Origin: a bacterium
GTDB taxonomy: Bacteria > UBA10199 > 2-02-FULL-44-16 > JAAZCA01
Assembly (NCBI GenBank): GCA_021810905.1
Contig: JAJZQH010000003.1
Location: 1,897-65,896, forward strand
Length of the DNA: 64,000 nucleotides
Direction: 5' to 3'
Part shown: one piece after another, positions 1 to 63,574 of the stretch
How positions within the stretch are numbered: the first letter of the stretch is position 1
Layout: the number at the start of each line of letters is the position of its first letter
Made by a program: the position numbers and the translations under genes
The notes under the pieces: model-generated
The model's input: only the letters and a program-made list of their open reading frames with translations
Told to the model about the DNA's origin: nothing
Database searches by the model: none

Positions 1-3000
1 AAAAGCAGGCGAAAGAGCGCCGCAAAGAGCACCATAAAGAGGCTCGAATGATTCTCCCGTGCCAGCGCCTTTAGCTTGTGCGCCACATCCTGACTGATGA
101 CAGTTCGATATTGCGCGGTTCTCCTGTCCGCGACGTCTCCTCCCTCACTATCGTGCGGCATCGAGGGGATGAAGAGTTCCGTCTTCTGTAAGGCATCCCT
201 CCAAAAGTCGATTTCAGGCTGTATCAATCTCCTGTCGCTCAGAAATCGGCGGTGCCATTCCGAATAATCACGAAACTGAAGCGAAGGAAGACCTGGCGTA
301 AAGCGCTCGCCGCCGTGTCGAGATCGCAGCATGGCCTCGATTTCGCGCTTCAGATTGTACAAGGACCACCCGTCTCCTATAATATGATTCATCGCGAAGA
401 GGAGATCCGATCCAACATCTCCGTTCTGCACCATGACCGCCCTGAAGAGCGATGGTTCCTCCAAAGCAAAAGCCGCGTCGCCTTCCTTCGCGGCGAGTGC
501 AGCAAACTCCGTCGCTACCTTCTCCCCTCTCTCGTTGGAAAGATCGACCATCCTGAAATGCAGCCGCCCGGTCTCGTGAATCCGCTGAAATACGCAGCCA
601 TCCTCCTCTTCGAACGATGTCCGCAAGCTTTCATGCCTGCGGACGATCAGGCAAAGCAACTCTTGAAGAACATCCGCCTCCACATTGTCGTCGAGATGCA
701 TGGTAAAGACCATGTTCGACGAGGCATCAGCCGGCTCCTCGCGATATCGCCGCCAGATCCTCTTCTGCGCGATGGTAGCATCATAGCGATCACAATCAGA
801 CGCAGGACGGATGATATATCGGCTTGCTCCCTCCCGCCGATTTCTCAACATTTCCGCAAGCGAGGCGATCGTCGGATGAATATAAATCGTCCTGATCCTG
901 AGATCCGCATGGAAGATGCGGTTCACGGCATTCATAACCTGCATCGCCCGCATCGAATGACCGCCGAGATCGAAGAAATCGTCATCTATACCGACTTCCT
1001 CCACACCCAGTTCGCGCTTCCAAATCTCTATCAATTGATTTTCCAATTCATCTTGCGCGCCGCGCCCGCCAGCACGCGGTCTCGTCGCCCCCTCTCGCTC
1101 TCCAGGACGGATCGGCCCTTCACATGTCAGGGCCGCATTCAATTCGCCACACTCGCCGATCCGCAGATCCGGATAATCCAGAATCTCCATGATTATCCGT
1201 TCAAAGGCCGAGACATAAGATCGGACTGTCGCCCCACTGAGTAGATTCGGGGCAAAAGCGAAGGATAAATGCAGTCCGCGCTCAACGTCATGAACGTGCA
1301 ATGCGAGCGGAAATTTCGCCGAGACGAAATCACCTTCTATTTTCTTGAATGAAGCATCCCCTATAAAGAGATGCGTAAAATCATGACTAACCTGACCGAA
1401 CATGACATCAAAGAGCTGCGCATGAGTGGATATTCCGTTCGCGTAAAGCCGGCCGACGAGATATTCAAACTGATACTCAGACCGATCATATCCTTCGAGG
1501 ATCACACCTCGCACACGGCGCATGAACTCACGCCATGTCAGATTCGAGCACATACAAAATCGCAGGGGTAACGTGTTGACGAACAGGCCGACCACTCGAT
1601 CGAACTCCGCGTTTTTACGATCCGTGAAGGGCATGCCGATGGTCACGTCCTTGCCGCCCGCAGCCCTCGAAAGGAGGACCGTCAGCGCCATCATCAATAC
1701 CATGTAGGTCGTCGCAGATTCCTCCTGTGCGAATCGCAGAAGACGCTCCGCGATACCCGAATCGAGATCGAGGGCGATGGACTCTTCTACGCAATCGAAC
1801 GATGAGAGTTGATCCCCCAGGATTGGAAGGGATTTTGTCTTCTCAATATCGCGGCATCGTTCTGACCAATATGCCTCATGCGCGTGTTTTACCGTGCTCT
1901 CGCGCAACCGCTGATGTTCCGAAAAATCTCTATATTGAAATACAGTCTCTGGGAGGATCTTTCCTCGATAGAGCGCATCCAGATCGTGAAAAAGGACGTG
2001 AGCGGACCGATCATCGAAGATGATATGATGCACGTCCATCGCGAGCACCTTCCTCCCGTCATCATATTCGACCAGGGCAAACCTCAAAAGAGGTGCCCTT
2101 TCCAGGCAAAAGGGACGGACGAACCGTTGCAGGGCACGCGTTTCACCATCGATTCGGTCGATTCGAAATGGAACAGATCGATGAATCCGCTGAAGCATGT
2201 TCCCATGCGCCACCTCGAAGGATGTCCTCAACGACTCATGGCGTTCGATCAGCGCCAGCACCGATGATTCGAGTTTCGGTACGTCGATATCGCCCAATAT
2301 CTCGTAAAAGAGAGGGATGTTATATGCGGTACTCTCCGGATGAAGTTGCTGCAGCAGGTAGAATCGGCGCTGAGACGATGACATTTCATAGCTATCGCGG
2401 GACTCGGTTCGATTGATTTCCGAAGTTGTCAAGACGCCATCGGCCGGAATTTTTCGAGCTAATTCCGCAATGCACGGATGTTCGAAGATATCGCCTATGG
2501 AAATCTCGGCGCCGAATTCGTTTCTGACGCGATCAACGATGCGAAGCGCGATCAAGGAATGCCCTCCGAGGTCGAAAAAATCATCGCGGACTCCCGCGCA
2601 TTCCATGCCGAGCTCTTGTCGCCAGATATCCGCCAGACGCAACTCAACGTCACTGCGCGGGGCCTCATATTCGTCATGAAATTCGGAGACCGCTTCCGAA
2701 AGCGCCGCACGATCCACTTTCCCGTGGATCGTGCGCGGTAACCGCGCCAATGACACAAATCTAGAGGGAACCATATAGCGCGGCAACATCTCCAGCATAT
2801 GTCGCCTAAGCTGCGTAACCCTATTATCTCCGTCAAAGACGACATAGGCCGACAGCGTTTTTTCGTCATGGACCGTTTGATTCACGACAACGACGTTTTC
2901 CTTTACCCCGCGATATGCAGCGATGCACTTCTCCACCTCTCCAAGTTCGATTCTATAACCACGCACCTTTACCTGATCATCGCGGCGGCCTATAAAATCG

Positions 3001-4178
3001 ATATCGCCCTCGGGAAGCATTCGCGCAAAATCGCCCGACCGATACATCCGCTCTCCGGGAACGAAAGGATCCGCGGAAAAGCGTTCCGCCGTCAGCCGCT
3101 CGTCATGGAGATATCCGCGTGATACCGCCGCGCCTGCAATATGGATCTCGCCCACTTGTCCGTCGGAAACTCGGAGTCCATCGTCGCCCATGAGATAGAT
3201 GCGCGTATTCGCAACAGGCTTCCCGACGGGGACATTCTCTCCGGGTTTGGGGCCGGTACGATAGCGATACGTCGTAGCGCAGATCGTCGTCTCAGTCGGA
3301 CCGTATGCATTGATGACGATCATTCGCTCATGCATGTCCTGATATCTTTTGAGGACTTCATCCCGGATCGGCTCGACGCCGACGAGAAGTTTTCGAAGTC
3401 GCAGCGTATCACGGGATCCGCTCAGAATCCTCGATACGTCGTCTATAAATCCAGGCGGAATGTACGCAAAAGTGACACCCTTCTCCCGAATCACATGGGT
3501 AAACTCCTCAACATCGTAGCATTGATCGTTCTTGAGCAGGATCAAACGCGATCCATGAAAAAGCGGGAGAAATATTTCGGCAACGCTCACGTCAAACGAG
3601 ATGCTGGCGCCGGCGAGAAAGACATCCGTTTCATCCAGGCGTCCTTCATAGACATCAGCCATGTGATGAATGAAGTTGGCGAGCTGGGCATGCTCGACCA
3701 TCACGCCCTTAGGCTTTCCCGTGGAACCGGACGTATATATGACATAAGCCAAATCGGACGGATCGGGCTGTACCTCCGGTTCCTCGATATCTCCCCGGAG
3801 GAAGAGGGAATCGTCCAGATCGATCACACGATATTCGTCGCTCCATTTCCACAAACTGCAGCTGCCGGACGTCATCACCACGCTCGATCCGCTCTCCTCC
3901 AGAATGCACTCGATACGCTTTCGCGGATTGGCGGAATCGAGCGGCAGATAGGCACCACCCGCCTTCAGGGCGGAAACCATGCCCACGATCATTTCGATCG
4001 ACCGATCGGCGACGATCCCTACGATTACATCGCGCCCGACGCCAAGCCCGCGGAGCCGATTAGCGATACGGCCCGCCCTCTTGTTCAACTCTCCATAGGT
4101 AATCCCTCGATCGCCGCACTCCACCGCTACGGCCTCGGGCCGCATCCTGCCCCACCTGCCGATAGCTTCAAACACCAT
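1..4178 (-). CDS. Non-ribosomal peptide synthetase, N-terminal part (A-T-C-T-C...), continues beyond the window start
   Basis: Absent from the ORF track because no stop lies in the window. My reverse-strand translation from ATG 4178-4176 reads MVFEAIGRWGRMRPEAVAVECGDRGITYGELN. The A3 core AYVIYTSGSTGKPKG is encoded at 3705-3749. Carrier-protein motifs DDFFDLGGHS have Ser codons at 2556-2558 and 954-956. Condensation His motifs are HHIIFDDRS (HH codons 2025-2030) and NHIIGDG (384-389). Plus-strand ORFs 252..1244 and 3141..4451 are antisense shadows. ATGA start/stop overlap with the upstream gene at 4178. Confidence 0.85.
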   Translation of the reverse strand, partial: MVFEAIGRWGRMRPEAVAVECGDRGITYGELNKRAGRIANRLRGLGVGRDVIVGIVADRSIEMIVGMVSALKAGGAYLPLDSANPRKRIECILEESGSSVVMTSGSCSLWKWSDEYRVIDLDDSLFLRGDIEEPEVQPDPSDLAYVIYTSGSTGKPKGVMVEHAQLANFIHHMADVYEGRLDETDVFLAGASISFDVSVAEIFLPLFHGSRLILLKNDQCYDVEEFTHVIREKGVTFAYIPPGFIDDVSRILSGSRDTLRLRKLLVGVEPIRDEVLKRYQDMHERMIVINAYGPTETTICATTYRYRTGPKPGENVPVGKPVANTRIYLMGDDGLRVSDGQVGEIHIAGAAVSRGYLHDERLTAERFSADPFVPGERMYRSGDFARMLPEGDIDFIGRRDDQVKVRGYRIELGEVEKCIAAYRGVKENVVVVNQTVHDEKTLSAYVVFDGDNRVTQLRRHMLEMLPRYMVPSRFVSLARLPRTIHGKVDRAALSEAVSEFHDEYEAPRSDVELRLADIWRQELGMECAGVRDDFFDLGGHSLIALRIVDRVRNEFGAEISIGDIFEHPCIAELARKIPADGVLTTSEINRTESRDSYEMSSSQRRFYLLQQLHPESTAYNIPLFYEILGDIDVPKLESSVLALIERHESLRTSFEVAHGNMLQRIHRSVPFRIDRIDGETRALQRFVRPFCLERAPLLRFALVEYDDGRKVLAMDVHHIIFDDRSAHVLFHDLDALYRGKILPETVFQYRDFSEHQRLRESTVKHAHEAYWSERCRDIEKTKSLPILGDQLSSFDCVEESIALDLDSGIAERLLRFAQEESATTYMVLMMALTVLLSRAAGGKDVTIGMPFTDRKNAEFDRVVGLFVNTLPLRFCMCSNLTWREFMRRVRGVILEGYDRSEYQFEYLVGRLYANGISTHAQLFDVMFGQVSHDFTHLFIGDASFKKIEGDFVSAKFPLALHVHDVERGLHLSFAFAPNLLSGATVRSYVSAFERIIMEILDYPDLRIGECGELNAALTCEGPIRPGEREGATRPRAGGRGAQDELENQLIEIWKRELGVEEVGIDDDFFDLGGHSMRAMQVMNAVNRIFHADLRIRTIYIHPTIASLAEMLRNRREGASRYIIRPASDCDRYDATIAQKRIWRRYREEPADASSNMVFTMHLDDNVEADVLQELLCLIVRRHESLRTSFEEEDGCVFQRIHETGRLHFRMVDLSNERGEKVATEFAALAAKEGDAAFALEEPSLFRAVMVQNGDVGSDLLFAMNHIIGDGWSLYNLKREIEAMLRSRHGGERFTPGLPSLQFRDYSEWHRRFLSDRRLIQPEIDFWRDALQKTELFIPSMPHDSEGGDVADRRTAQYRTVISQDVAHKLKALARENHSSLFMVLFAALFRLL

Positions 4179-5113
4179 CATAATGCGCCGCCCTTCGTGA
4201 CAGAAGTCTTCCCCTCACGATGCACGTTTGCAAAGATTTCGCCGATGATACCGAGGACTGAAGCGATGGTGATGTTGGAGACATCCAACGATGGGGCGAA
4301 TTCCACGATATCGAAGGCGCGCACTGAAATCGGAAGCGACTCGATCATCTTGAGGAGCACGCTTACCGGGATTCCGGCGGCCACGGGCGTTCCCGTTCCC
4401 GGAGCACAGGATGGATCGAGCACATCCACGTCGACCGACACATACAGATGATCGACACGGCGGGAGATATCTTCAACGCCTCGTCGAAATCGCTCCAGCG
4501 CACCAGTATCGAAGAGAAGTTCGTCTGAGGGCAGCTCGTGAATGCCCGTCCGCTTGATATACGGCATCTCCTCCTGTTCATACGCGCGCGTTCCCACCAG
4601 GAGGCAGTCGGTCGGCCTGATCTCCGTCGTTTCAATCGCGCGACGCAGCGCCGATCCATGTGAGAAAGAAAAACCATGATACGTATCGAGTAGATCGGGA
4701 TGCGCGTCGAACCAGATAACACCCGTCCTCCCTCGCTTCGCCACAGCCTTGAGGATAGGATGGGTAACGGAGTGATCGCCCCCTATGGACACAAGCGTTG
4801 AATCCGTCCCGTCAAGGACGGCGGAACAGCTGCATTCTATGGCGTCGAATGTCTTCATCGCATCGAAGGTGGAAACGTCAACATCTCCAATGTCGAGGAT
4901 CCGTATTGACGACAGGTCATCGCCGCGACGGGATGTCGATTTCAACCTCCCAGTCATGGATCGCACTCGCCCGGGCGCAAAAGCGGCGCCACGCTGGCCG
5001 CCGGCTCCTCCGTCGAATGGTATCCCGAGGATGAGCACGTCGGCATCGCCAGGGGAATTCGCTTTTGTCCCCACTCCGTTCCATGCGCCATATCCTTCGG
5101 ATTTTAAAAACAT
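4178..5113 (-). CDS. Arginase-fold ureohydrolase (agmatinase / guanidino-acid hydrolase-like)
   Basis: ORF 4178..5206. Arginase-family metal-binding motifs GGDHS, DAHPD and SVDVDVLDP. Start moved to ATG 5113 (MFLKSEGYGAWNG), preceded by AGGAGG. Its stop overlaps the NRPS start (ATGA). Confidence 0.8.
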   Translation of the reverse strand: MFLKSEGYGAWNGVGTKANSPGDADVLILGIPFDGGAGGQRGAAFAPGRVRSMTGRLKSTSRRGDDLSSIRILDIGDVDVSTFDAMKTFDAIECSCSAVLDGTDSTLVSIGGDHSVTHPILKAVAKRGRTGVIWFDAHPDLLDTYHGFSFSHGSALRRAIETTEIRPTDCLLVGTRAYEQEEMPYIKRTGIHELPSDELLFDTGALERFRRGVEDISRRVDHLYVSVDVDVLDPSCAPGTGTPVAAGIPVSVLLKMIESLPISVRAFDIVEFAPSLDVSNITIASVLGIIGEIFANVHREGKTSVTKGGAL

Positions 5114-5238
5114 AACATTCCTCCTATTCGAGAGCCCGTAACCCCGGACATTGCATGCAGGTCGAGTGTCCCAAAAAACAGCCCCGACAAAACGCTGGCT
5201 GGTCATGCATCATCCATGGGCACACAGTGATATTGCGC

Positions 5239-5823
5239 CTAGGGAATCGGCACAACGTTGAACTGGAACTGGGTCCCATCGACGATCTTCCGTTCAATGC
5301 TGTCAAGATCGCTCACGACTGCACAATAAGACGCCAGCCAATCAAGCGCCCTCTGTTTGTCGCTGTCACGGGTGGAGACCACTCCGTCGGACGGTACGAT
5401 CACATGATAGCCCCGGAAATAAGCATCCGCCGCCGTCGTTTGCACACATATCTGCGTCTGCATACCTGTGATGACGATGGTATCGACACCCAGCACCTTA
5501 AGACGTTCGTCGAGTTTCGTCTCGAAGAACCCGCTATCCTTATTCTTCTCAACGATGATATCACGATCATCGAGGTAGTCCTGTGCTATCATTGCGCCCT
5601 TTGTACCGCGCAGGACGGGCAACACGCCGTTATGAAGCTCCGCGTGGTTGTCGTCCTCGTCATAGATCAGCTGAAGATGGACGATTGGAATATTCATCTC
5701 GCGCATTTTTTTGAGAAAGCGGATCATCGAAGGAGCGAATCGCTCGACCTGCTTGCGGCGCTCTTCATTCTTGTTAATGAGGTCATACTGCAGATCGTTG
5801 GTTAAAATTGCATATCGCGCCAT
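5239..5823 (-). CDS. Isochorismatase-family cysteine hydrolase
   Basis: ORF 5239..5895. Start moved to ATG 5823 (MARYAILTNDLQ) behind GGGGAG. Family-typical segment DTIVITGMQTQICVQTTAADA carries the nucleophile Cys. Confidence 0.75.
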   Translation of the reverse strand: MARYAILTNDLQYDLINKNEERRKQVERFAPSMIRFLKKMREMNIPIVHLQLIYDEDDNHAELHNGVLPVLRGTKGAMIAQDYLDDRDIIVEKNKDSGFFETKLDERLKVLGVDTIVITGMQTQICVQTTAADAYFRGYHVIVPSDGVVSTRDSDKQRALDWLASYCAVVSDLDSIERKIVDGTQFQFNVVPIP

Positions 5824-5878
5824 TTTGGACTCCCCTAAATATTGAACAACAAATTCGTGCACAATAGCTTCCATTCGC

Positions 5879-7294
5879 TCAGATGGACCGACCAATATTC
5901 CTCTTCATCATTGTTGAAAATCGCGAAAGTCCATCCTTCCAGATTTCGAAAATCTCCTGCTCGTCGAGATATTCTGTTCTGGTCACGGATGGCTGATCTT
6001 CTCGCCAGCTGTCAAAGTTTTCGCCAATAATCGTCAAATGATAGCGTTCGAAATTATGGTAGAGGTCGGTCCCCGGATAAGGCGTCGTGATATAGTACTC
6101 CACGATATCCGCGAGCCCCTCTTCGAGCAGCTTTTCGGCATAGGCGATCGTCCGGTAGGCGGTATCCCTCGATTCGCCAGGCAGCCCAACCATCCAGTAA
6201 AGGAGGACATTCAGCCCGGCATCCTTGGCCATTTTACAGGATGCTCTGATCTGCTCGACTCGAATTCCCTTCCGGATGAGATCGAGTAATTCCTGGTTCG
6301 CACTCTCCGCGCCGTACTTGATGAGCCGGCAATTGCCCTCATGCATCTTTCGGAGGATTCGGGGGGTCACAAGATCGCAACGCGTCTGAGCGATCCATCG
6401 AAAACCCCGGTTCCGCATCTCCATTCCAAACTCCTCCACATAGGAGGGATTCGTCGTGAATGATTCATCGCCGACATAAAGCAGATCTATGTCAAAATAT
6501 TTTCGTAGAAGTTCCGCCTGCGTTACGGTTCGCTCCATACTCTGATACAACGGTTTTCTCCCCTTCCAGATCGTGTCCGCACAATACGCACAGTTATAGG
6601 TACAGCCCCTCGACGTATAGATCCGGGCGAAAGGAATCTGACCGCGATAGATGTCGTTCGGTATGAGATGATATGCCGGCATAGGGAGACGATCGGATAT
6701 GATCGCTTCCTTGCTGAATGGATTTACATTGATCTCACCATCACGTTTCCACGAGATTCCCGGGATACCTCTAAGATCTCCGCCATCATGGAGGCACCGT
6801 AATAGATCTGGCAGGATGAATTCGCCCTCCCCTCTCACAACGATATCGATATCCTCCTCTTCCAGGCATGAGCGATCCGTATAGGACACATGTGGTCCGC
6901 CAAGAACAACGAAGACATCTCGGCCCAGCACTTTTTTGACCAATCGGGAAACGCGAACGGCAACGCTGAAACTATTGGTAAAAGGCGACATGCCAACCAC
7001 ACGAGATGTGACCTGGCTGAGTTCCCTCGCAATGGCATCATAGTCGATGTCGCATCCGGAATAAGATGTGAGATCCAGGACATCTGCGGTCAAGCCTTCG
7101 TGCTCAAGGGTTCCCCCCAACGCGGCAATCCAAAGCGGGAGCTCCTTGATGTCGTAGATCGGGGCTTTTACGAATTTTCCACCGATTCTCCGTTCAAAGA
7201 AATCCCAGTAGACATCATAAAACGCGCTCTCCTCTTTATGAATGAACGGTTTCGCGATCAGCGGAAGCTGGATAAACGTAAAATCACTGTTCAT
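5879..7294 (-). CDS. B12-binding-domain radical SAM enzyme
   Basis: ORF 5879..7294. N-terminal Rossmann/cobalamin-binding-like part (VVGMSPFTNSF...VVLGGPHVS). Radical SAM cluster motif CTYNCAYC (CxxxCxxC). ATGA overlap with the hypF stop at 7291-7294. Confidence 0.8.
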   Translation of the reverse strand: MNSDFTFIQLPLIAKPFIHKEESAFYDVYWDFFERRIGGKFVKAPIYDIKELPLWIAALGGTLEHEGLTADVLDLTSYSGCDIDYDAIARELSQVTSRVVGMSPFTNSFSVAVRVSRLVKKVLGRDVFVVLGGPHVSYTDRSCLEEEDIDIVVRGEGEFILPDLLRCLHDGGDLRGIPGISWKRDGEINVNPFSKEAIISDRLPMPAYHLIPNDIYRGQIPFARIYTSRGCTYNCAYCADTIWKGRKPLYQSMERTVTQAELLRKYFDIDLLYVGDESFTTNPSYVEEFGMEMRNRGFRWIAQTRCDLVTPRILRKMHEGNCRLIKYGAESANQELLDLIRKGIRVEQIRASCKMAKDAGLNVLLYWMVGLPGESRDTAYRTIAYAEKLLEEGLADIVEYYITTPYPGTDLYHNFERYHLTIIGENFDSWREDQPSVTRTEYLDEQEIFEIWKDGLSRFSTMMKRNIGRSI

Positions 7295-9630
7295 GATATT
7301 TCCTCGTCTCCAATCGATGAGCGGCCAAACTGGAGACCCGCGATGATCGCCTGTCCAAGCGACACACCGCCGTCATTGCTCGGAACCCTCGAATGCCTAT
7401 AAACGGAGAACCCGTCGTGCGTGAGAGAGCGGTAACAATGCGAGAGAAGAAATTCATTCATGAAGACACCGCCGCTCAAGACGACCTTCGCAAGCCCATG
7501 CGTGAGCCGGATGCGATGACAAACGTCTCTGACAATATCTACGATCGTTTGATGAAAACGACGGCTGATAACGCCAAGCGAGATGCCACCTCGCACGAGG
7601 AGATCCACGATCTCACGAATCATCGGCCGCATATCAATCATCCCAGAGGATGTTGATTCCATGAAGTCATAAGAGAACGATGTAAATTCATCCTCTCCGT
7701 CCGCCATGATGTATTCGAGTGCCATGGCCGCATGCCCTTCATGGGAAATTGACTCGATCACGCCGATAAGCGCGGAAACAGCATCAAACAAGCGGCCCAT
7801 GCTCGACGTTTGTGGAGAATTGATCCCTTGTTTCGCCATACGCAGAAGGAGATCCAGTTCGTCGCCCTGTCGTTCTCGGATAATCGGCAGGGGGAGTTCA
7901 CGAAGCACGTGCTCATCGTAGATCTGTGAAAGAATACCTATCGCCGTTCTATAGGGATGCTGCACAGCTTTATCTCCACCCGGAAGCGGAAAAGGCCGCA
8001 GGCAGGCAAAACGCTGAAATTGTTCATAACCTCCGACAAGGAACTCACCGCCCCAGATGCTGCCATCGGCGCCGTATCCGGCTCCATCGAAGATGACGCC
8101 GATCACGTCCTCATCCAGGCCATGCTCGCACATACATGAAGCCATATGGGCATGATGATGTTGAACCCTGACCACAGGAAGATGTTCCATTTCCTCGGCA
8201 TAGGCGCTCGTCAGAAAATCCGGATGGAGATCGCATGCTACAAGCTCAGGCGCAATATCATAGCTCGCCCTGATATGATCGATGATCTCACGGAGGAACC
8301 GGTAGATATATTGATTATTGATATTTCCTATATGTTGACTGACGAACATCCTCCTGTCCTTTGTCAGGCATATCGTGTTCTTCAGATCTGCACCGAGCGC
8401 CAACACGGAAGGAAGGGTACGATGGCACATGATCGGATGGGGGGCATATCCGCGCGCTCGGCGGAGTATCTCAACATGATGGCCATCCCCATTCGAGCCC
8501 ATACATCTGACGATCGAATCGTCGATTCTGATATGGATATTGCGGTCATGCGAAAGAAAAAAATCTGCGACGTCTTCGAGCTTCGTCAAGGCATCGTCGT
8601 CATCGCTGATGATCGGCTCATCAACCGCATTGCCGCTTGTGGCCACAAGTGCCGGAAAATGACCCCGGAGCAAGAGATAATGAAGGGGTGTGGAAGCAAG
8701 CATGACTCCGTAGCGACGGTTATCCGGGGCTACAGCCTGGCAAATGAGATCGTTCTTCTTCTTTCGGAGCAAAACGATGGGACGTTGTGGGGAAGCAAGC
8801 AACTGCCGTTCATCCTCCGAAACATGCGCAAAACAACGTACCTTGTCGATTTCGTCGGACATCATCGCAAAAGGCTTGAGGCTGCGCCGCTTCCTCCTGC
8901 GCAACTCGTTGACGGCGTCTTCCTGCGACGGATCAACCATTAAATGATAGCCGCCTAGCCCCTTGACGGCGATAATTAACCCTTGCCGCAGAAAATTCAC
9001 GGTTTCAAGGATGGGATCGCGGGTATCTACCGGCTCGCCATCTCGCCGCTTGAGAAAGAGCTGCGGTCCGCACTTCCAGCACGCATTGGGCTCTGCGTGA
9101 AATCGTCGATCCGACATATCCTCATATTCATCCATGCATTCCTCGCACATCCGGAACACATGCATCGTCGTATTGCACCGATCGTAGGGAATGTCCTTGA
9201 TGATGGAGTATCGAGGCCCACAATTCGTGCAGTTGATGAAAGGGTAACGATGCCGCCGGTCGGCGGGGTCGAAGAGTTCAGACAAACACTCGGAACAGAT
9301 GCTGGCGTCGGGAGAGATGAGTGTTTCGCGTGAGGCATCTTGCCTGCTCTCCAGGATGCGAAACTCCTTATGGAGGCCAGTCGCCTTTTCGACTGAGATG
9401 AGCTTGATCTCATCAACGACGGCCATGGACGGCGCATCGAATTTGAGCTCCTGAATGAATTTCGCGCTTTCCTCCTGCGGCCCTTCAATTTCGACAACCA
9501 CGCCCCGTGAATTGTTGAGGACCCATCCGCGAAGATCGTATTTCTTGGCGACGCGATAGACAAAGGGCCTGAATCCTACTCCCTGTACGATCCCGCTGAT
9601 CAGATATCGGCGCACTTCAAACATGGCCAT
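7291..9630 (-). CDS. hypF: Carbamoyltransferase HypF (full-length architecture)
   Basis: ORF 7291..9630. Acylphosphatase-like N-terminus ISGIVQGVGFRPFVYR. Two zinc-finger pairs (CSECLSEL..CTNCGPRYSI and CEECMDEY..CWKCGPQL). YrdC-like AVKGLGGYHLMVD. Kae1-like C-terminal half with VQHHHAHMASC. GGAGG RBS upstream. Confidence 0.9.
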   Translation of the reverse strand: MAMFEVRRYLISGIVQGVGFRPFVYRVAKKYDLRGWVLNNSRGVVVEIEGPQEESAKFIQELKFDAPSMAVVDEIKLISVEKATGLHKEFRILESRQDASRETLISPDASICSECLSELFDPADRRHRYPFINCTNCGPRYSIIKDIPYDRCNTTMHVFRMCEECMDEYEDMSDRRFHAEPNACWKCGPQLFLKRRDGEPVDTRDPILETVNFLRQGLIIAVKGLGGYHLMVDPSQEDAVNELRRRKRRSLKPFAMMSDEIDKVRCFAHVSEDERQLLASPQRPIVLLRKKKNDLICQAVAPDNRRYGVMLASTPLHYLLLRGHFPALVATSGNAVDEPIISDDDDALTKLEDVADFFLSHDRNIHIRIDDSIVRCMGSNGDGHHVEILRRARGYAPHPIMCHRTLPSVLALGADLKNTICLTKDRRMFVSQHIGNINNQYIYRFLREIIDHIRASYDIAPELVACDLHPDFLTSAYAEEMEHLPVVRVQHHHAHMASCMCEHGLDEDVIGVIFDGAGYGADGSIWGGEFLVGGYEQFQRFACLRPFPLPGGDKAVQHPYRTAIGILSQIYDEHVLRELPLPIIRERQGDELDLLLRMAKQGINSPQTSSMGRLFDAVSALIGVIESISHEGHAAMALEYIMADGEDEFTSFSYDFMESTSSGMIDMRPMIREIVDLLVRGGISLGVISRRFHQTIVDIVRDVCHRIRLTHGLAKVVLSGGVFMNEFLLSHCYRSLTHDGFSVYRHSRVPSNDGGVSLGQAIIAGLQFGRSSIGDEEIS

Positions 9631-9652
9631 TTGCGCCTCCGCAATAACGTAT

Positions 9653-10675
9653 TCAGCATAGTCTCGGAAGTTCAGCCCCCTGCAGCAACTGGACGATTTT
9701 TTCCTCCCCGCCTTCGCCGCACATCACGACGTGGCAATCATCACATTCTAACACTTTACCGATGACCGATGCGTGTTCCCCATATCGATGCCGACGGAGC
9801 GTTTCGACAATCCCCTTGCTCGCTCCGGAGGAAGCGAAGATGCAGACATTCCCTTCATTGGCGAGGTAGAGAGGATTTACGCCCAGCATGTCCGCGGCCA
9901 TAACGGTCTCATGCAGGATGGGAAGCCGCACCTGTTCGATGCGCACGCCGAACCCCCCTAGCTGCGAGATCTCGTTTAAGAGCGTTCCCAACCCGCCACG
10001 CGTGATATCGCGCATGCAATGAATACGATTCCCAAACTCTTTCAGCACACCCGCAATCATATCGTTGAGTGGAGCGCAGTCGCTTTGAATCCGCCGTTCG
10101 AACCCCAACCCTTCACGAATTGAAAGTATATGGATGCTGTGATTGCCGAGCTGTCCGGAGATGATGACATCGTCGCCTGGCCGAATGGACGATATCGAAA
10201 GATGTATATCATTAGGCTGAAAAATACCGATGCCGGATGTGTTGATAAAAATCTTGTCGACCTCGCCGCGTTTGACGACCTTCGTATCCCCGGCAACGAT
10301 ATACACTTCCGCCTCCAGTGCCGCGTCACGGATGGAATGCAGGATCTGTTCGAAATCCGAAAGCGGGAAGCCCTCCTCCAGGACGAAGGCGAGCGTCAGG
10401 TACAGCGGCTTGGCGCCGCTAACAGCCAGGTCGTTCACCGTGCCGCAAACGGCGAGCTTACCAATATTCCCGCCGTGAAAAAAAATCGGATCCAGAACAA
10501 AAGAATCGGTGGTGATAGCAATGCGATCGGCCTTCCACTCGAGTACGGTGCTGTCCTCCATCTGGCCTCGGTGGGTCTCACCGAGGCATCGCACGATGAC
10601 ATCTCTGATGAGATCCCCACTCAACTTGCCACCGGTTCCGTGATCGAGCACAATGCGATCTGACAGATAATTCAT
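9653..10675 (-). CDS. hypE: HypE (carbamoyl dehydratase, PurM-like) with C-terminal PRLC
   Basis: ORF 9653..10693 (TTG-initiated in the track). Likely ATG at 10675 (MNYLSDRIVLDHGTGGK). AIR-synthase-related fold motifs. The protein ends ...GAELPRLC, matching the PR[IV]C terminal-cysteine motif of HypE. Confidence 0.88.
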   Translation of the reverse strand: MNYLSDRIVLDHGTGGKLSGDLIRDVIVRCLGETHRGQMEDSTVLEWKADRIAITTDSFVLDPIFFHGGNIGKLAVCGTVNDLAVSGAKPLYLTLAFVLEEGFPLSDFEQILHSIRDAALEAEVYIVAGDTKVVKRGEVDKIFINTSGIGIFQPNDIHLSISSIRPGDDVIISGQLGNHSIHILSIREGLGFERRIQSDCAPLNDMIAGVLKEFGNRIHCMRDITRGGLGTLLNEISQLGGFGVRIEQVRLPILHETVMAADMLGVNPLYLANEGNVCIFASSGASKGIVETLRRHRYGEHASVIGKVLECDDCHVVMCGEGGEEKIVQLLQGAELPRLC

Positions 10676-10700
10676 TTCCAAGCCGCCTATCAATAAAAGA

Positions 10701-10716
10701 GCAACGATGGTGCCAA
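10701..10716 (-). promoter_or_regulatory. Sigma-54 (-24/-12) promoter candidate for the hypE-hypF-rSAM-hydrolase-NRPS operon
   Basis: The minus strand reads TTGGCACCATCGTTGCT (TGGCAC-N5-TTGC). The -12 GC lies ~25 nt upstream of the hypE ATG at 10675. An A/T-rich tract lies further upstream (10800-10850). Confidence 0.6.
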
Positions 10717-10874: not shown

Positions 10875-10913
10875 TCAAAAATGAGAGAACGGGAGGGGAC
10901 GTCCCGTTCTCTC
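10875..10913 (-). terminator. Rho-independent terminator of the small gene 10935..11228
   Basis: Perfect 12-bp stem GAGAGAACGGGA (10883-10894) / TCCCGTTCTCTC (10902-10913) with a 7-nt loop. On the minus strand it is followed by ATTTTTGAG. Confidence 0.7.
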
Positions 10914-10934
10914 AGGTTGAACTGCTTCGAAAAC

Positions 10935-11300: not shown

Positions 11301-11939
11301 CTATCGGAAATAGGATGCGATCAACGAGGCTGCGATGAAGGCCATGATGCACCCGATGATGATATCCAGCCACCTCCATACGACGGCTCTCTTCAAGATG
11401 GAAGAGAGAAGGTGCGAGAAGAGCGCCAACGCGGAAAACCAGAGGAGTTCCGCCAGAAAAATGCCGAGGAGAAAGAAGGGCCTTTGAGGGAGAGATAATT
11501 GCCCGCCGACGCTGCCGATCAGGACGATGTTGTCCAACAGCGCATGCGGATTTAACCAGGAGAAGGCGAGAGTCGAGGCGACGATCTTTCCCAACGTAGG
11601 ACCGTTCGGCATGCCTCCGTTTGCGTTGAGGACTTTCGGTCTGATCGCCGACTTGAAGGAGAGGAATCCGTAATACAGGAGAAACAGGGCTCCTCCCCAA
11701 AGGGCGACGTTTTTCACCGTGGGCGAACGGGAAATGAAGAACCCCACGCCGTAGACCCCGGCCACGGCGAGGGAGACGTTCAGGATGATCGAGAGGGCGG
11801 CGATCGTCAGGACGTGTTGACGTTGCAGCCCCTGCCGCAGGACGAACGCATTCTGCGCGCCGATGGCAACGATGAGGCCGAGATTGAGGGCCAGTCCCTG
11901 GGAGAGAGGAGTGAGCGAGCAATCCATCAAGTTCATCAT
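11301..11939 (-). CDS. LysE/ArgO-family basic amino-acid exporter
   Basis: ORF 11301..11939. Aligns by eye with ArgO: GAQNAFVLRQG, WGGALFLLYYGF..FK, WLNPHALLDNIVLIGSVGGQL. Six hydrophobic segments. Confidence 0.85.
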   Translation of the reverse strand: MMNLMDCSLTPLSQGLALNLGLIVAIGAQNAFVLRQGLQRQHVLTIAALSIILNVSLAVAGVYGVGFFISRSPTVKNVALWGGALFLLYYGFLSFKSAIRPKVLNANGGMPNGPTLGKIVASTLAFSWLNPHALLDNIVLIGSVGGQLSLPQRPFFLLGIFLAELLWFSALALFSHLLSSILKRAVVWRWLDIIIGCIMAFIAASLIASYFR

Positions 11940-19174: not shown

Positions 19175-21808
19175 CTACAGCAACTCTCTCAACACGGAAG
19201 CATATGGACCTTTCGCTATCTTTTCGAGGGCCGAATGCGAGAGCCGCCGGATCCTTTCTTTGCTCAAGCCGAGCATGCCTCCCACTTCCTCATGCGTATG
19301 ACCTGCGAGGTGGCATTGGAGCACTATGATTTTTTCCCTGTCGCTCAATCCCGATCCCTCAATCGCCATGTCGAGTTTCGTGATGGCATCGCTTCGAAGC
19401 GCGAGATGATCCGGCCCGACCTCTCCCAAATCGGTCACCCGGCCTTCCAACGTGAAATCACCATCTTCTTCGTCCAGCGGCGCAGAGAAGGAGACTTCCC
19501 GCCTTGCTGCCGCTCCCCGCTGTATCATCATTTTAAAGAGCGTCAACGAGAGCGAACGCTTGACATAGGTCTCAAAACTCGCGATCGAGGGATCATAGCG
19601 TTGCGCCAGCTTGTGGAGCTCAATCCTTCCTGCCTGGAGAAGCGCCCCAAAGCTCATGTTCGCCCCGCCAAACCTTGTCATCACGGAAGAAGCAATGCCC
19701 GCCATCAACGGCTCATAAAAAAAGATCAGGTGATCGAGTGCCTGCCGGTCGCCGGACTTGGCCATCCAGAGGAGAAGCATCTTCTCACGCTGATCCAGAA
19801 ATATTCCGCCGCCGCTCCTTCGCTTTGTCGTTATCGTCGAATAGACGTCCATCCCATAGTGCGAAAACGCCCAATCGATCATCCGCCCTTCACTTTCTGA
19901 ACCGCGCCACAGATTGCGGAGATAACCATAGAGGCCCATCAATCCCGAGTTCCTCTCTCCAACATGCGAGCGAAAATCTCCCTGCACGATGCCAGCTGCA
20001 TCCTTTGCGCCCGCTTCGCACATCATTCCAGCGAGATAAAAAGCAATGACCGAATCAGGCACGCGGCGCCAGCCCGAGAGCTTCCCGCCTCTCCGCTCAG
20101 CCAGACGAAGCTGCAGCGCAAATGGCATTTCTTCGGCTGCGGATACACCACAATAATCCAGGATTTTATCGACTACCACTCTCGAATCGTCAGGTGTCTT
20201 CCTCAGACTAAAATGCGTGTAGAGACCTTTCAGCGATTGACCGATCTCCGGGACGACCGTACTCTCCATCTCGCGACAGGAAACAAACCTAACGTGAGGC
20301 AGGCCATTGAGTTCCTGCACCCTCTCCATAAGGCGCAGAATCGTCGCGAGGGGAACCTTCTCCCACGGCCAATTCCTGTTATATCGCAAACAGAGGCACT
20401 GTTGTTCGTAGGAAAGATCTTCAAACCTCTCAACTCCGAGTTGATCGAGCATGAAATCCAGCGCAGAACCTCCGTAGCCTTCCGGAACCCTGAGCCAATA
20501 ATGTTCAAGCAAGCCTGAGAGCGTCGCGCCGAGCTCATCGAGCACGATCTCATTCAGTTTCTTACCTGGCATCGCCCTCAGATGCGGACATTTCAAACCG
20601 TTCTGCTCGGGTAAGAGTCCTCTGGCTATCTCCAGCAGTTTCACCTGCGTGGAAGCAGGCATTCTTTCCCATTTTATGAGTTCGCACTCTAGAAGACCCT
20701 TCAGCTGCACATCCCAGGGAAGGATCTCAAATGACGGAACGCCCACATCATCAAGCAGTGCATCGATTATTCTGCGGGCCTCTTTTCCCCGGTTGAGATA
20801 ATTATTATACAGTCCAATCAGTGTAGAACTGAGTTCTGGCATTTCGATGTCCCTGAAGTGGTCGAAAGTCAAAAACCTCGGATGCACAACGCCAGCCTCA
20901 TTCGCCAAGCGAAAAAGCAGATGTCGCTTAAGCTCCACGCTAATTTTATCCCAGTGGATACGCTGATAACGCAGCCCGATGAATCTCGCCTGTTCCGCCA
21001 GAGACAATTCCTCAAACCTCTGCACTCCTAAATGATCGAGCATGAAATCCACGATCCCGCCTGCACCGTGTTCGTCCGTCCACATCCGAGAATAATGTTT
21101 GTAAAGCCCTTGGCACTGCGCTTTCCATCCCGGCAACCTCATTTTGAAATGATCGAATCCCAGCAGGCGAGGATGTGGCAGGTTTTGAACCAGCGCCATC
21201 TGCTCGAGTATTCTGACCTGTGCACTGAGAGAGAGATGAGAGACATTCTTAAAGGGAGCGGAATCAACCCGCAACCGGTCGATCTCTGCCTGAATGCGCA
21301 ACTCCTCCATGGGATGATACGTGTATCGAAAGGAGCCGAGTCCGCGGGTCCCGAATTTCAGGCAGATATCAGCTATGGAGACGCTTGCCCCCTCGATCAG
21401 CGCGAGCGCCGATGCGACGAGCATCTTTGCGGGTTCGAAAGAGAGTATTCCCAGGATATGGGCGTCATGCGCGATAATGATCGCGTGAGAGGGAGAGTCA
21501 AAGCCGTGGAGTTTGAGCGCATCGCGCGTCATCGGGCTGCTCTCGTCGACAAAACGCATTGCTTGCCGATCGAGCGCCCTCCGGATCTCGGCCGGCGTCT
21601 GCCGGTGTGATCCATCTCGCTCCCCGTATTCATCCGCGGACGACGGCGTTGCAGAGTGCTCTTCGGTGTCAACGCCGCAGGATTCAAGCTCCTGGGATTC
21701 GGCGCAGGGCGGTATCTCGTCGAGGGCAGCTGTCTCTTCAGCAAGGACTAAGCTCCCCAACAGCTCCAGCTGCGAAGCGAGGTCTCCTGTAGATTGCAGC
21801 GCGGCCAT
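19175..21808 (-). CDS. Giant sigma-70-family protein: ~690-aa N-terminal extension with five ~98-aa tandem repeats plus C-terminal sigma2/sigma4 domains
   Basis: ORF 19175..21808 with AAGGGGAGG RBS. The C-terminal ~185 aa carry region 2-like (YDPSIASFETYVKRSL) and region 4 HTH-like (LSDREKIIVLQCHLAGHTHEEVGGMLGLSKERIRRLSHSALEKI) sequence. Repeat anchors GLYKHY, GLYNNY, GLLEHY, GLYTHF and GLYGYL sit at residues 234, 332, 432, 528 and 625. Confidence 0.75.
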   Translation of the reverse strand: MAALQSTGDLASQLELLGSLVLAEETAALDEIPPCAESQELESCGVDTEEHSATPSSADEYGERDGSHRQTPAEIRRALDRQAMRFVDESSPMTRDALKLHGFDSPSHAIIIAHDAHILGILSFEPAKMLVASALALIEGASVSIADICLKFGTRGLGSFRYTYHPMEELRIQAEIDRLRVDSAPFKNVSHLSLSAQVRILEQMALVQNLPHPRLLGFDHFKMRLPGWKAQCQGLYKHYSRMWTDEHGAGGIVDFMLDHLGVQRFEELSLAEQARFIGLRYQRIHWDKISVELKRHLLFRLANEAGVVHPRFLTFDHFRDIEMPELSSTLIGLYNNYLNRGKEARRIIDALLDDVGVPSFEILPWDVQLKGLLECELIKWERMPASTQVKLLEIARGLLPEQNGLKCPHLRAMPGKKLNEIVLDELGATLSGLLEHYWLRVPEGYGGSALDFMLDQLGVERFEDLSYEQQCLCLRYNRNWPWEKVPLATILRLMERVQELNGLPHVRFVSCREMESTVVPEIGQSLKGLYTHFSLRKTPDDSRVVVDKILDYCGVSAAEEMPFALQLRLAERRGGKLSGWRRVPDSVIAFYLAGMMCEAGAKDAAGIVQGDFRSHVGERNSGLMGLYGYLRNLWRGSESEGRMIDWAFSHYGMDVYSTITTKRRSGGGIFLDQREKMLLLWMAKSGDRQALDHLIFFYEPLMAGIASSVMTRFGGANMSFGALLQAGRIELHKLAQRYDPSIASFETYVKRSLSLTLFKMMIQRGAAARREVSFSAPLDEEDGDFTLEGRVTDLGEVGPDHLALRSDAITKLDMAIEGSGLSDREKIIVLQCHLAGHTHEEVGGMLGLSKERIRRLSHSALEKIAKGPYASVLRELL

Positions 21809-33806: not shown

Positions 33807-35480
33807 TCACTGCACGTCGTCGATCGTCTGGATCGGGATCGGGGTGAATGATATCGGCGGCGATGTCAGTTTGTAATCGCTCAGGCAGCTCCAGACCTCC
33901 GGCCGATCGGGAAGTACGTTCGCCGGCGGCAATATATATGGGGAGTTCAGATTGAGAGCCGGTTCCTGTCCCTGCATCTTGACTATCGGCAGGTTCTTCT
34001 GAAGCAATAATTTATATGCCCAATTCGGAACGGAATTAATTTTTTTGGCTGCCGGCTCGAGTGCCACGTTCTGGTTCAGGAGTTGCACCCTCTCTAACAG
34101 TTTTAAAAGTAAATATTTGTGCGGCAGGCAGCCATAGTGAACGAGGTCACTGCCATCCACGAAGATGTCGTGAGGCTGAGGCACATAAACAGCGTAATTC
34201 TTAGCACCTGAATAGACCACGATTGCGGGAATATTGATGCTGCGCAACATATGCGCGAGGAAATGGCTGGACGTTGCGTCGTCTCCTGCTCGCATGGCGA
34301 AAACGAGCTCAAGAGGGGCGTTCAGCGCTCGATCATCCGGACTTGCATACTTATTACTCTGATCAGCGCTATAGTTGCCGCTCTTCTGCACTTGCGAGCA
34401 GTAACTCCTGCCAGGATTGAACTGCTTATATTCCGGCGATATACCCACATAATAGCCGGAATCGGTCATCGTAATATCACCGCCTTGCCCGTGAAGAGCT
34501 ACCTGCGGGTCCACCCATGTGACCTCTTTTTCGATGATGCCCCTTGCGGTCGCGATCACCGGATCTTGCTGATTCAACGCACTGAGCGTCACGGGGAATA
34601 TCTTGTAGGTGTTGAAACCAGCGCCGCGGCAGACCCAGGAACCTTCATCGCTGGTGAATTTCGTATACAGTAGATCAGGCAGTCCAATCACCTTCTTTGA
34701 AGGAATCTGCTTGTTCCACTGATATCCATCGGGGATATTGTTGAAGAAGAAATCGACGAGAGTTGGGTCCCACGTCTTGATAGACCATGGCAATATGACC
34801 GCAGCCTCGACCCAGAACGCGTGTACGATAGAGACGATCCGCTGCCTGCACATCATGTCCTCGGTTCCGCACTTGGCGTCCAATGCCGCGTCGAATGCCG
34901 CTTGTTTGTCACTCGCCTTGTCGAATGGGTTGTACGTGAGGAACAGATCGCGAACGAGATCCAGCGTGCCTTCGGAAGTCAGTTGGGCCTTGAGATTGCT
35001 GAGATTGGAATAAGCGATGATTTCATCAAATTTGCCGTTCATCCACGCATCGTGATCCGCGGCAACTGCCTCAGGTCTGATAAACGCATTCCCCTGATTT
35101 TGCTGGATGAACTGGGCATAACCAAGATTGATTTTGTTGAACGAATGTATTGACGGCGGAGTGACGTTCACCTGCTGATCCACGCAGTGGTTATTCGCAT
35201 CGCATACCTGAGGAGCCGTGCACGTTCCGCACGAGGCGATCGTGCCGCCGCATTCGTCGGGAATATTGTCGCCGCACGTATAGCCCAGGTCCGCGCAGGT
35301 CTTTGGCACGCAACTCTCTGTGGGCGCCGGAGTGGCTTCAGGCAGTTCGCTCACGGTCGGCTCGTTACCAGCGCCGGCAGGCGTTCCCTCCCCGCCGCCG
35401 CTGCAGCCGATCACACCGGCTACGACGAGCGCGATGCAGATGATGAGTGAACCAGCGTATATTGAATATAGTTTCTTCAT
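33807..35480 (-). CDS. Lipoprotein with N-terminal Cys-rich repeat, otherwise unknown
   Basis: ORF 33807..35507. Start moved to ATG 35480 (MKKLYSIYAG...VIGCSGG lipobox) behind AGGAGG. Cys-rich module CVPKTCADLGYTCGDNIPDECGGTIASCGTCTAPQVCDANNHC. Confidence 0.7.
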   Translation of the reverse strand: MKKLYSIYAGSLIICIALVVAGVIGCSGGGEGTPAGAGNEPTVSELPEATPAPTESCVPKTCADLGYTCGDNIPDECGGTIASCGTCTAPQVCDANNHCVDQQVNVTPPSIHSFNKINLGYAQFIQQNQGNAFIRPEAVAADHDAWMNGKFDEIIAYSNLSNLKAQLTSEGTLDLVRDLFLTYNPFDKASDKQAAFDAALDAKCGTEDMMCRQRIVSIVHAFWVEAAVILPWSIKTWDPTLVDFFFNNIPDGYQWNKQIPSKKVIGLPDLLYTKFTSDEGSWVCRGAGFNTYKIFPVTLSALNQQDPVIATARGIIEKEVTWVDPQVALHGQGGDITMTDSGYYVGISPEYKQFNPGRSYCSQVQKSGNYSADQSNKYASPDDRALNAPLELVFAMRAGDDATSSHFLAHMLRSINIPAIVVYSGAKNYAVYVPQPHDIFVDGSDLVHYGCLPHKYLLLKLLERVQLLNQNVALEPAAKKINSVPNWAYKLLLQKNLPIVKMQGQEPALNLNSPYILPPANVLPDRPEVWSCLSDYKLTSPPISFTPIPIQTIDDVQ

Positions 35481-35671
35481 GGCAATCCTCCTGGGCAAAA
35501 ACTTCACAATGCTTATAATACAGCAAAGGACGTGCCATTGCGGCAGAAAAAAAAGACAACTGTAATATCAGCAGGTTGTAGAACTCTCGACCCTGGCGGG
35601 ATCACCATCAAATTGAGAATCAGGGCTGCCGGCATTGGATTTTTGACTGATAAATCGGACCGCTCTTCGCC

Positions 35672-63572: not shown

Positions 63573-63574
63573 GT

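Follow-up and report, generated by a model that had tools for sequence, protein, structure and literature searches.

HypE and HypF in a nonribosomal peptide locus: a candidate variant of a mobile, hydrogenase-independent biosynthetic cassette with a proposed role in C-N unit transfer

HypE and HypF are textbook single-job enzymes that make the CN ligands of [NiFe]-hydrogenase: HypF and HypE together convert carbamoyl phosphate to HypE-S-CN, the source of these ligands. What, then, is the function of a hypE-hypF pair at the head of an operon of apparent natural-product enzymes, in a 64,000-nt stretch of DNA from an uncultured bacterium (contig JAJZQH010000003.1; hereinafter, the window)? By a slight balance of probability, we favour the reading that this locus is a variant of a mobile biosynthetic cassette, with a core composed of iso2, an isochorismatase-family cysteine hydrolase, and a dedicated HypE/HypF pair, that is independent of hydrogenase and for which a C-N transfer mechanism can be proposed. 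The conserved unit is iso2-HypE-HypF rather than HypEF-NRPS (NRPS, nonribosomal peptide synthetase). The cassette is widespread and horizontally mobile, comes in several cluster architectures and is represented in about 190 species; the window contains a rare variant of it. The six genes of this variant are all located on the minus strand, and are listed here in the order of transcription (all coordinates are window positions).

9653..10675, minus strand: cassette-clade hypE, 340 aa, ending in PRLC, TIGR02124
7291..9630, minus strand: cassette-clade hypF, 779 aa, with the full architecture, TIGR00143
5879..7294, minus strand: class B (B12-binding) radical S-adenosylmethionine (SAM) enzyme, Pfam B12-binding and Radical_SAM
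5239..5823, minus strand: iso2, isochorismatase-family cysteine hydrolase, PF00857
4178..5113, minus strand: arginase-fold ureohydrolase, Pfam Arginase (the longest open reading frame starts at 5206)
1..4181, minus strand, running off the window start: NRPS, A-T-C-T-C, 1393 of 1560 aa within the window

A first-pass annotation, made from the DNA letters alone, described six co-directional genes behind one sigma-54-type promoter, and the open reading frame (ORF) and domain calls, along with an exact promoter match, bear this out. The start of the radical SAM gene overlaps the hypF stop by 4 nt (7291-7294), as annotated. The NRPS ATG also overlaps the ureohydrolase stop, but the position given for this overlap, 4176-4180, was off by one, the true site being 4178-4181. 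The GC content of the cluster (0.52-0.545) is below that of most of the remaining window. An Rfam scan of the window and four related loci detected no riboswitch family at the gathering score.

The families of HypE and HypF, as well as the radical SAM and B12-binding domains, are all matched in the profile searches. HypE scores 421 bits against TIGR02124 (cutoff 252), consists of PurM-like AIRS N and C domains and terminates in the PRLC motif, the cysteine of which had been noted at first pass. HypF scores 798 bits against TIGR00143 (cutoff 466) and encompasses five Pfam domains, with acylphosphatase, two zf-HYPF fingers, YrdC/Sua5 and both Kae1-like parts, i.e., the complete four-module architecture that had been read from the translation. 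Across the cassette and canonical proteins, 63 columns are conserved in HypE, including P337, R338 and C340, and 100 in HypF, including the zinc-finger cysteines, H491, H492 and H495, the Kae1-site histidines and residues of the acylphosphatase domain; positions specific to the cassette proteins number just 7 in HypE and 4 in HypF. Given this conservation of the catalytic residues, the conversion of carbamoyl phosphate via HypE-S-carboxamide to HypE-S-CN would be expected to be retained, and the cassette pair probably performs HypEF chemistry.

The description of the pair as "canonical" thus holds for domains and catalytic residues but fails for phylogeny, where the cassette proteins form a separate clade. 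With the cassette HypE of loci L011 and L012, the window HypE shares 64-65% identity, compared with 38-45% with hydrogenase-linked HypE (Escherichia coli, C. necator and others). Paraburkholderia phenoliruptrix possesses copies of both kinds, and the identity of the window proteins is higher to the cassette pair (HypE 52%, HypF 45%) than to the pair of the hyp cluster (44% and 32%, respectively). HypE identities to all plasmid records are bimodal, with 50-58% for genes that are cassette-type where checked (pRLG203, pSYMBR3459) and a lower mode of 36-45% for genes that adjoin hypC and hypD. In neighbour-joining trees, the split between cassette and canonical proteins has bootstrap values of 100/100 for HypE (30 taxa) and 96/100 for HypF (29 taxa); with the canonical set of only six sequences sampled in both trees, the window proteins lie outside the hydrogenase-linked clade. 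Branching inside the cassette clade departs from the organismal phylogeny; for example, the window copies group with those from Bacillota and Solirubrobacterales, apart from other clusters of the radical SAM type. The cassette therefore moves horizontally, with accessory genes being exchanged around it. Two other features were considered and abandoned. The contrast between PRLC in the cassette and PRIC in canonical proteins holds against six canonical sequences, which is too thin to use as a discriminator. Apparent iso2-HypE fusion ORFs in high-GC loci are out-of-frame ORF extensions in five of the six cases checked, and the one in L081, from a nanopore metagenome-assembled genome (MAG), has the look of a frameshift, so that there is no evidence of fusion.

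The distribution of the cassette was traced by scanning the iso2 alignment over one genome per species in 185,579 species, which yielded 192 iso2 relatives; the locus counts given here and below rest on the best 80 of these unless stated otherwise. HypE or HypF is encoded beside iso2 in 76 of the 80 loci and all three genes are present in 73; among all fetched loci that contain the three genes, 69 of 76 show the order iso2-HypE-HypF on one strand. Two of the four exceptions (L024 and L060) are cut by contig ends, L041 combines iso2 with an aminotransferase and has no HypE or HypF hit at 50% coverage, and in L066, iso2 is located among NRPS genes. The hosts include dozens of Solirubrobacterales, many Streptomyces and other actinomycetes, Cohnella, four Paraburkholderia species, Hafnia, Kalamiella, Photobacterium, Psychromonas, MAGs labelled as Saccharibacteria and a Nannocystaceae MAG, and loci with this gene set are found in Bacillota, Actinomycetota, Pseudomonadota and Myxococcota. 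Synteny around hypEF recurs across phyla, but the conserved partner turns out to be iso2 and not the NRPS that was named at first pass. For example, L011 and L012, the loci of the best HypE hits, lack the radical SAM and arginase genes and contain iso2-HypE-HypF followed by a class-III aminotransferase.

The iso2 protein (PF00857, 118 bits) is 51-70% identical across loci and phyla, including L011 and L012, and retains the Asp-Lys-Cys triad of the isochorismatase-like hydrolases, with D10, K93, K95 and C126 invariant in 85 loci. It falls far below the cutoffs of the characterized equivalogs, namely RutB (51 bits, cutoff 378), biuret hydrolase (50 bits, cutoff 370) and nicotinamidase (33 bits, cutoff 174), and forms a discrete family, with just 11 representatives (50% clusters) at E<=1e-30 among 1.84 billion proteins. 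A second isochorismatase-fold paralog, iso1, is located between the arginase-fold gene and hypE in clusters of the radical SAM type, in L002 (6088-6552) and L004 (2051-2548), and also in L100, L102 and L103. The catalytic cysteine is lost in both aligned copies (L002 and L004), so that iso1 may be a pseudo-enzyme or a scaffold; the window cluster does not encode it.

The weak family matches of iso2 (RutB, biuret hydrolase and a protein related to N-carbamoylsarcosine amidase) bring up carbamoyl transfer as the sole function of the cassette: HypE would be an S-carbamoyl carrier, iso2 would move or edit the carbamoyl group, and a ureido or carbamate group would end up on the product. HypF is a carbamoyltransferase, and the iso2 family forms S-carbamoyl-cysteine intermediates in N-carbamoylsarcosine amidase, which is compatible with such a scheme. 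We nevertheless regard it as unlikely: all the residues shared with dehydrating HypE proteins are kept, and one-protein carbamoyltransferases (of the TobZ/NodU or OTCase type) suffice in many clusters, which leaves the two-ATP HypE step unexplained.

The independence from hydrogenase maturation that the first-pass annotation had proposed is apparent at several levels. Neither hypABCD nor hydrogenase subunit genes are present in the 64 kb window, as had been stated, and none of the best 80 iso2 loci contains hypA-D within 10 kb. HypA, HypB, HypC and HypD along with large and small subunit queries from five organisms, which detected all six control hyp loci, were run against about 90 cassette loci, and the sole hits are hupSL in four Paraburkholderia loci; apart from this hupSL, the hallmarks of [NiFe]-hydrogenase maturation (HypC/HypD, HypA/HypB and the large subunit) are missing from the window and the related flanks. 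The Paraburkholderia loci are themselves informative. On the symbiotic plasmid pSYM of P. phenoliruptrix, a close relative of the hosts of these four loci, the complete array hupSL-cybH-...-hypA-hypB-hypF-hypC-hypD-hypE is followed by ectB, a GNAT gene, iso2, a second hypE and a second hypF. The nodule transcriptome of P. phymatum includes two hypF genes, Bphy_7254 in the hup/hyp cluster and Bphy_7272 beside the hypE gene Bphy_7271, as well as ectB (Bphy_7266), a GNAT gene (Bphy_7268) and a second diaminobutyrate (DABA) transaminase (Bphy_7273) (PMC8305402). Bphy_7271, Bphy_7272, Bphy_7266 and Bphy_7268 are strongly NifA-dependent; in the nifA mutant, the listed genes for which values are reported go down by 5-8 log2 units, with no value given for Bphy_7273 (PMC8305402). 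The gene order in P. phymatum matches that in L067 and L095. These values indicate that the cassette is expressed, in P. phymatum under a sigma-54 activator.

Under a trivial explanation, the window would contain ordinary hypEF genes that serve a hydrogenase encoded elsewhere in the genome and lie beside the NRPS cluster by accident. Indeed, hyp genes do adjoin toxin clusters through insertion: in C. raciborskii, the cylindrospermopsin cluster is inserted in the hyp/hup region, and the hydrogenase cluster is uninterrupted in non-toxic strains (PMC2821919). The search for hydrogenase genes in the present genome covered the 64 kb window. However, the recurrence of the gene set in four phyla, the separate clade of the cassette proteins, the 4-nt overlap of hypF with the radical SAM gene and the presence of both kinds of HypEF pair in Paraburkholderia largely refute chance adjacency, to which we assign a next to negligible probability. 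Recurrent synteny, the distinct clade and coexistence with a canonical hyp set together provide strong comparative-genomic support for a HypEF pair that acts outside hydrogenase maturation in a locus of the natural-product type.

What sets the window apart from most cassette loci is the combination of the radical SAM enzyme, the ureohydrolase and the NRPS. The radical SAM protein matches PF02310 and PF04055, contains the CTYNCAYC motif in the translation and belongs to class B, with no NCBIfam equivalog (ApyD, HpnJ, BchE and others) reached at the cutoff. Its orthologs form a small set with 57-60% identity, of which seven have retrievable genomic context. All seven have HypF and one or more isochorismatase-fold genes as neighbours; six have a HypE call, and six an arginase-fold gene. 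The ligase or decorating enzymes differ (NRPS in two, an ATP-grasp ligase in one, glycosyltransferases in one), and three contigs end too soon:

window, uncultured MAG: NRPS
L002, Heliomicrobium gestii: ATP-grasp ligase
L004, Clostridia-like contig: NRPS and MFS transporter
L100, metagenome contig: two glycosyltransferases and a methyltransferase
L102, L103 and L104, metagenome contigs: contig end too near to tell

Given that the downstream enzyme varies among the orthologous loci, the NRPS is not the conserved partner. Radical SAM relatives with about 40% identity (P0009, P0012) were also considered as members of the cassette and rejected, being located in other contexts without HypEF; the tie to the cassette is limited to the clade with 57% identity or more. 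One such relative (L007, 10001-17551) is encoded along with a second radical SAM protein, a fused AdoMet-decarboxylase/spermine-synthase, an arginase-fold protein and a GNAT protein, without HypEF, possibly a polyamine-modifying cluster. The other (L009) is located beside a NodU-type carbamoyltransferase and SPASM enzymes, again with no HypEF.

The translational coupling of the radical SAM/B12 gene to hypF in the window might be taken to suggest maturation of another metalloenzyme, in which CN ligands would be delivered to an unrecognized metal centre, e.g., on iso2 or on the radical SAM protein itself; delivery of ligands to iron is, after all, the sole proven role of HypEF. This possibility appears very improbable because none of the 80 loci of the iso2 genome scan has the radical SAM gene and there is no conserved metalloprotein partner other than iso2, which keeps its hydrolase triad and shows no cysteine-rich metal-binding motif among the conserved positions.

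The ureohydrolase (PF00491, 217 bits) retains the GGDHS, DAHxD and SxDxDxxDP metal motifs in the translation and is a member of the arginase superfamily; it scores 162 bits against the agmatinase family TIGR01230, below the cutoff of 174. Among solved structures, proclavaminate amidinohydrolase (1gq6, 9e-36) is its best relative, ahead of guanidinopropionase and guanidinobutyrase. The complete NRPS (1560 aa) is found on a matching 128-kb MAG contig from GCA_027327785.1, where its end is reached about 500 nt outside the window; about 1.7 kb separates the end of the cluster from that of the contig. The protein belongs to the NRPS family and has the A-T-C-T-C organization, with neither a thioesterase nor a reductase release domain. 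The motif-anchored specificity code of the A-domain reads DVAGLGAICK, with no acidic pocket residue, at low confidence; A-domain codes carry little weight here, and an attempt at substrate assignment found no assignable match. Beyond the window start (L001, 20366-21850), HTH_17 (excisionase-like) and 23S_rRNA_IVP-family genes are located downstream of the NRPS, after which the contig ends; these genes and the lower GC content of the cluster hint at a mobile island.

In the rest of the cassette loci, the partners are different. A DABA transaminase is encoded in 51 of the 80 loci (TIGR00709, 520 and 426 bits, cutoff 402), and the Paraburkholderia aminotransferase passes the EctB equivalog. Hafnia, Kalamiella and Photobacterium share a compact operon that consists of genes for an AraC-type regulator, an ATP-grasp ligase (a distant relative of DdaF), iso2, HypE and HypF, and has at its 3' end a DABA transaminase in Hafnia and Photobacterium and an EamA exporter in all three. 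In Streptomyces, the cassette is embedded in NRPS clusters with a stand-alone condensation domain, a transaldolase/serine hydroxymethyltransferase-like pyridoxal phosphate enzyme, a 2-oxoglutarate dioxygenase and a LuxR regulator. At the other extreme, in the minimal locus on pRLG203 of Rhizobium leguminosarum, the cassette is surrounded only by genes for transporters, SDR dehydrogenases and a GntR regulator. Overall, the recurrent partners are DABA transaminases, ATP-grasp ligases, NRPS modules, glycosyltransferases and EamA, MFS or ABC transporters, and clusters of the window type have the ureohydrolase and the radical SAM enzyme in place of the transaminase. A common logic would be an enzyme that produces a primary amine, the iso2-HypE-HypF core, a ligase or glycosyltransferase, and an exporter; on these grounds, we propose that the C-N unit bound to HypE passes to the amine, with ligation to follow.

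Two features of the Solirubrobacterales loci are worth recording separately. In 42 of them (L013-L058; e.g., L013, 2232-4766), a class-I aminoacyl-tRNA synthetase with a weak match to the LeuRS editing domain is encoded divergently upstream of iso2, and in 11, a PurM homolog is located convergently downstream of the aminotransferase. These neighbours could represent either housekeeping synteny or a resistance copy.

Minimal loci, which hold little beyond iso2, HypE, HypF and transporters, also lend themselves to a different interpretation, cyanogenesis, whereby iso2 would discharge HypE-S-CN, and the free cyanide or thiocyanate so released would either be a toxin or feed other enzymes as their substrate. 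Such a route to cyanide would be independent of oxygen, as opposed to HcnABC, and some of the hosts, e.g., Heliomicrobium gestii, come from anaerobic groups. The tight, recurrent linkage to amine-forming enzymes and ligases speaks against this interpretation, and none of the annotated loci showed cyanide-detoxifying or cyanoalanine-synthase genes, so that we consider cyanogenesis quite unlikely.

Under the preferred reading, that of C-N transfer to an amine, the reaction sequence might be as follows. Judging by the full conservation of the catalytic residues, HypF would convert carbamoyl phosphate to carbamoyl-AMP and then carbamoylate Cys340 of HypE, whereupon HypE, with ATP, would dehydrate the S-carboxamide to the S-cyano form (thiocyanate). 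With no HypCD iron scaffold to take the group, the active-site cysteine of iso2 would help to pass it, or else the carbamoyl group that precedes it, to the primary amine of a small building block. Reaction of the amine with the S-cyano group could yield a cyanamide, or a guanidine via an isothiourea-type intermediate, and hydrolysis could yield a ureido group. As suggested by the co-occurrence of the enzymes, the ureohydrolase in the window locus probably exposes the amine of a guanidino (arginine- or agmatine-type) precursor, and the B12 radical SAM enzyme probably modifies the building block, C-methylation being the likeliest reaction; a DABA transaminase would instead be the source of the amine in most other loci. 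The NRPS would then join the unit to a hydrophobic amino acid, with the terminal C domain using the free amine compound as the nucleophile.

We advance only tentatively, and with somewhat less than even confidence, the broader proposal that HypE-S-C≡N serves as an electrophilic cyanating reagent in many bacteria. Here, carbamoyl phosphate would be the source of a one-carbon C-N unit that a dedicated iso2-HypE-HypF cassette would install on primary amines, such as diaminobutyrate or deguanidinated arginine-type units, to yield cyanamide, cyclic or N,N'-disubstituted guanidine, or nitrile or thiocyanate residues that would be built into dipeptide antimetabolites, nonribosomal peptides or glycosides.

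Several observations weigh against the reading of the locus as a hydrogenase-independent C-N transfer cassette. The exit of the CN or carbamoyl carbon from HypE to an organic acceptor is a step that we infer, and the part played by iso2 in the transfer is inferred entirely, the closest solved relatives of this protein being uncharacterized or loosely related amidases. The code of the window A-domain, for what a low-confidence code is worth, shows no feature expected for a basic or guanidino substrate. On pRLG203, the 9 kb flanks that were examined contain neither a ligase nor an amine-forming enzyme; therefore, the acceptor may be a common metabolite or the function of the cassette may be simpler than proposed. 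Finally, the canonical outgroup in the trees comprises just six sequences, and the absence of hydrogenase genes in this organism applies to the 64 kb window alone.

Three features upstream of hypE bear on the expression of the operon.

10700..10715, minus strand: sigma-54 type -24/-12 promoter element TGGCACCATCGTTGCT, exact consensus match
10882..10914, minus strand: intrinsic-terminator-like hairpin, 13-bp stem and T run, end of the upstream unit
11301..11939, minus strand: LysE-family exporter, Pfam LysE, adjacent, membership in the system uncertain

An exact TGGCAC-N5-TTGCT match is located at 10715-10700 (minus strand), 25 nt upstream of the hypE ATG, and the operon is predicted to be transcribed from this sigma-54 promoter. 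The assignment is based on the position of the match rather than on the number of matches: with at most one mismatch allowed, the pattern occurs 3 times in the window against 1.8 expected, which is not significant as a count, and all three occurrences are exact. The other two sites, both on the minus strand, are located in the region 33807-35537, directly upstream of a 566-aa ORF without a Pfam hit (35507-33807), and at 62426-62441, respectively. Among the 102 fetched loci, the exact consensus is found only in the window locus, in L043 and at the E. coli hypA promoter (L093, 20602-20617), about 30 nt upstream of hypA, where it provides an incidental positive control for the pattern. No exact match was detected near the Paraburkholderia cassette, and outside the window, no cassette locus has the exact consensus beside the cassette, so that the sigma-54 promoter was rejected as a feature of the family. 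Between the LysE gene (11939-11301) and the operon, there are a 97-aa ORF, the terminator and the promoter; the latter two insulate the operon from the 97-aa ORF and from LysE. Thus, the LysE gene is a transcription unit separate from the hypEF operon, and the tie of a LysE/ArgO exporter to the system, as drawn at first pass, is weak. Other cassette loci encode EamA/DMT, MFS or ABC transporters in place of LysE.

The other 53 kb of the window encode, apart from LysE, a beta-lactamase-fold protein, hemerythrin, NamZ, FKBP, KdpABC, KdpD, an ABC-F protein, phosphoglucomutase, PstSCAB-PhoU, a phosphate porin, alkaline phosphatase, a two-component system and a CusCBA-type efflux pump. The named proteins most similar to the ABC-F protein come from MAGs labelled "Deltaproteobacteria bacterium", with identities of 53-60%. 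A 323-aa protein with a Thaumatin-family Pfam match (6e-15) is encoded between the phosphoglucomutase gene and the pst-phoU operon (39403-40374, minus strand). The only recognizable domain of an 877-aa protein (19175-21808, minus strand) is a C-terminal Sigma70 region 4 helix-turn-helix; on the minus-strand downstream side of this ORF, there are two ORFs (454 and 410 aa) without a Pfam hit. The region 62000-64000 has a GC content of 0.47, compared with 0.52-0.63 elsewhere in the window, and contains only short ORFs and no tRNA gene.

If the proposal is valid, the cyanide-ligand chemistry of hydrogenases has been recruited for small-molecule biosynthesis through a second widespread lineage, which would amount to a novel way of making nitrile-, cyanamide- or guanidine-type groups and to an enzymology undescribed for any natural product, in at least about 190 species that include cultivable Hafnia, Streptomyces, Paraburkholderia and Rhizobium. 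It would also account for many "orphan" hypEF annotations, flag gene clusters that mining tools may miss, and correct inferences of hydrogenase potential from metagenomes in which hypE or hypF are used as markers. The compact seven-gene loci in cultivable Enterobacterales make the question directly testable.

Comparison with known systems helps to delineate what might be new in the cassette. The first-pass annotation knew of no described natural-product pathway with a HypEF pair, and the full-text literature, subscription-only papers being outside its coverage, indeed yielded no functional study of such a pathway, only the transcriptome table cited above and a remark in a genome-mining study. 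The latter, decRiPPter (2020), mentions a Streptomyces candidate cluster with hypE, hypF and an ATP-grasp ligase but no other hyp genes, for which the authors suggested a novel function (PMC7794033). This is one paragraph in a study that mined genomes for RiPPs, and the passage itself covers neither the hydrolase partner nor phylogeny, distribution or chemistry (PMC7794033).

The ectoine pathway (EctB-EctA-EctC) resembles most cassette loci in the EctB-family DABA transaminase and those of Paraburkholderia also in the adjacent GNAT protein; the EctB-family partner suggests a diaminobutyrate-derived product. However, no EctC was seen in the annotated Paraburkholderia locus, and the window lacks EctB and has the ureohydrolase and the radical SAM enzyme, so that the likeness is a lead rather than membership. 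In clavulanic acid biosynthesis, proclavaminate amidinohydrolase, an arginase-fold enzyme, strips the guanidino group from an arginine-derived intermediate and exposes an amine, as would the window ureohydrolase, of which it is the best solved relative; the homology is distant (9e-36), and no other clavulanate gene is present. In the case of cylindrospermopsin, the cluster of which encodes NRPS/polyketide synthase enzymes, hyp genes are found beside the toxin cluster as they are here, but this is a case of insertion without a functional link.

The carbamoyltransferases of the TobZ, NodU and GdmN family (YrdC/Kae1-type) act inside natural-product clusters and share with the cassette this setting, carbamoyl-AMP chemistry and the YrdC-like and Kae1-like modules. 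They transfer the carbamoyl group directly to a hydroxyl or amine, without an acylphosphatase domain, zinc fingers or a HypE partner, whereas the cassette keeps the full HypF and a dehydrating HypE. The closest parallel is with the HypE and HypF of [NiFe]-hydrogenase maturation (E. coli, C. necator, T. kodakarensis). The cassette differs from this system in that there is no HypC/HypD, HypA/B or hydrogenase nearby, here or in about 90 related loci, in the clade that its proteins form, and in the obligatory cysteine-hydrolase partner, which canonical hyp operons do not possess. The families, domain architecture, catalytic residues and equivalog cutoffs are the same in both, and given the shared architecture and residues, the same chemistry would be expected up to HypE-S-CN.

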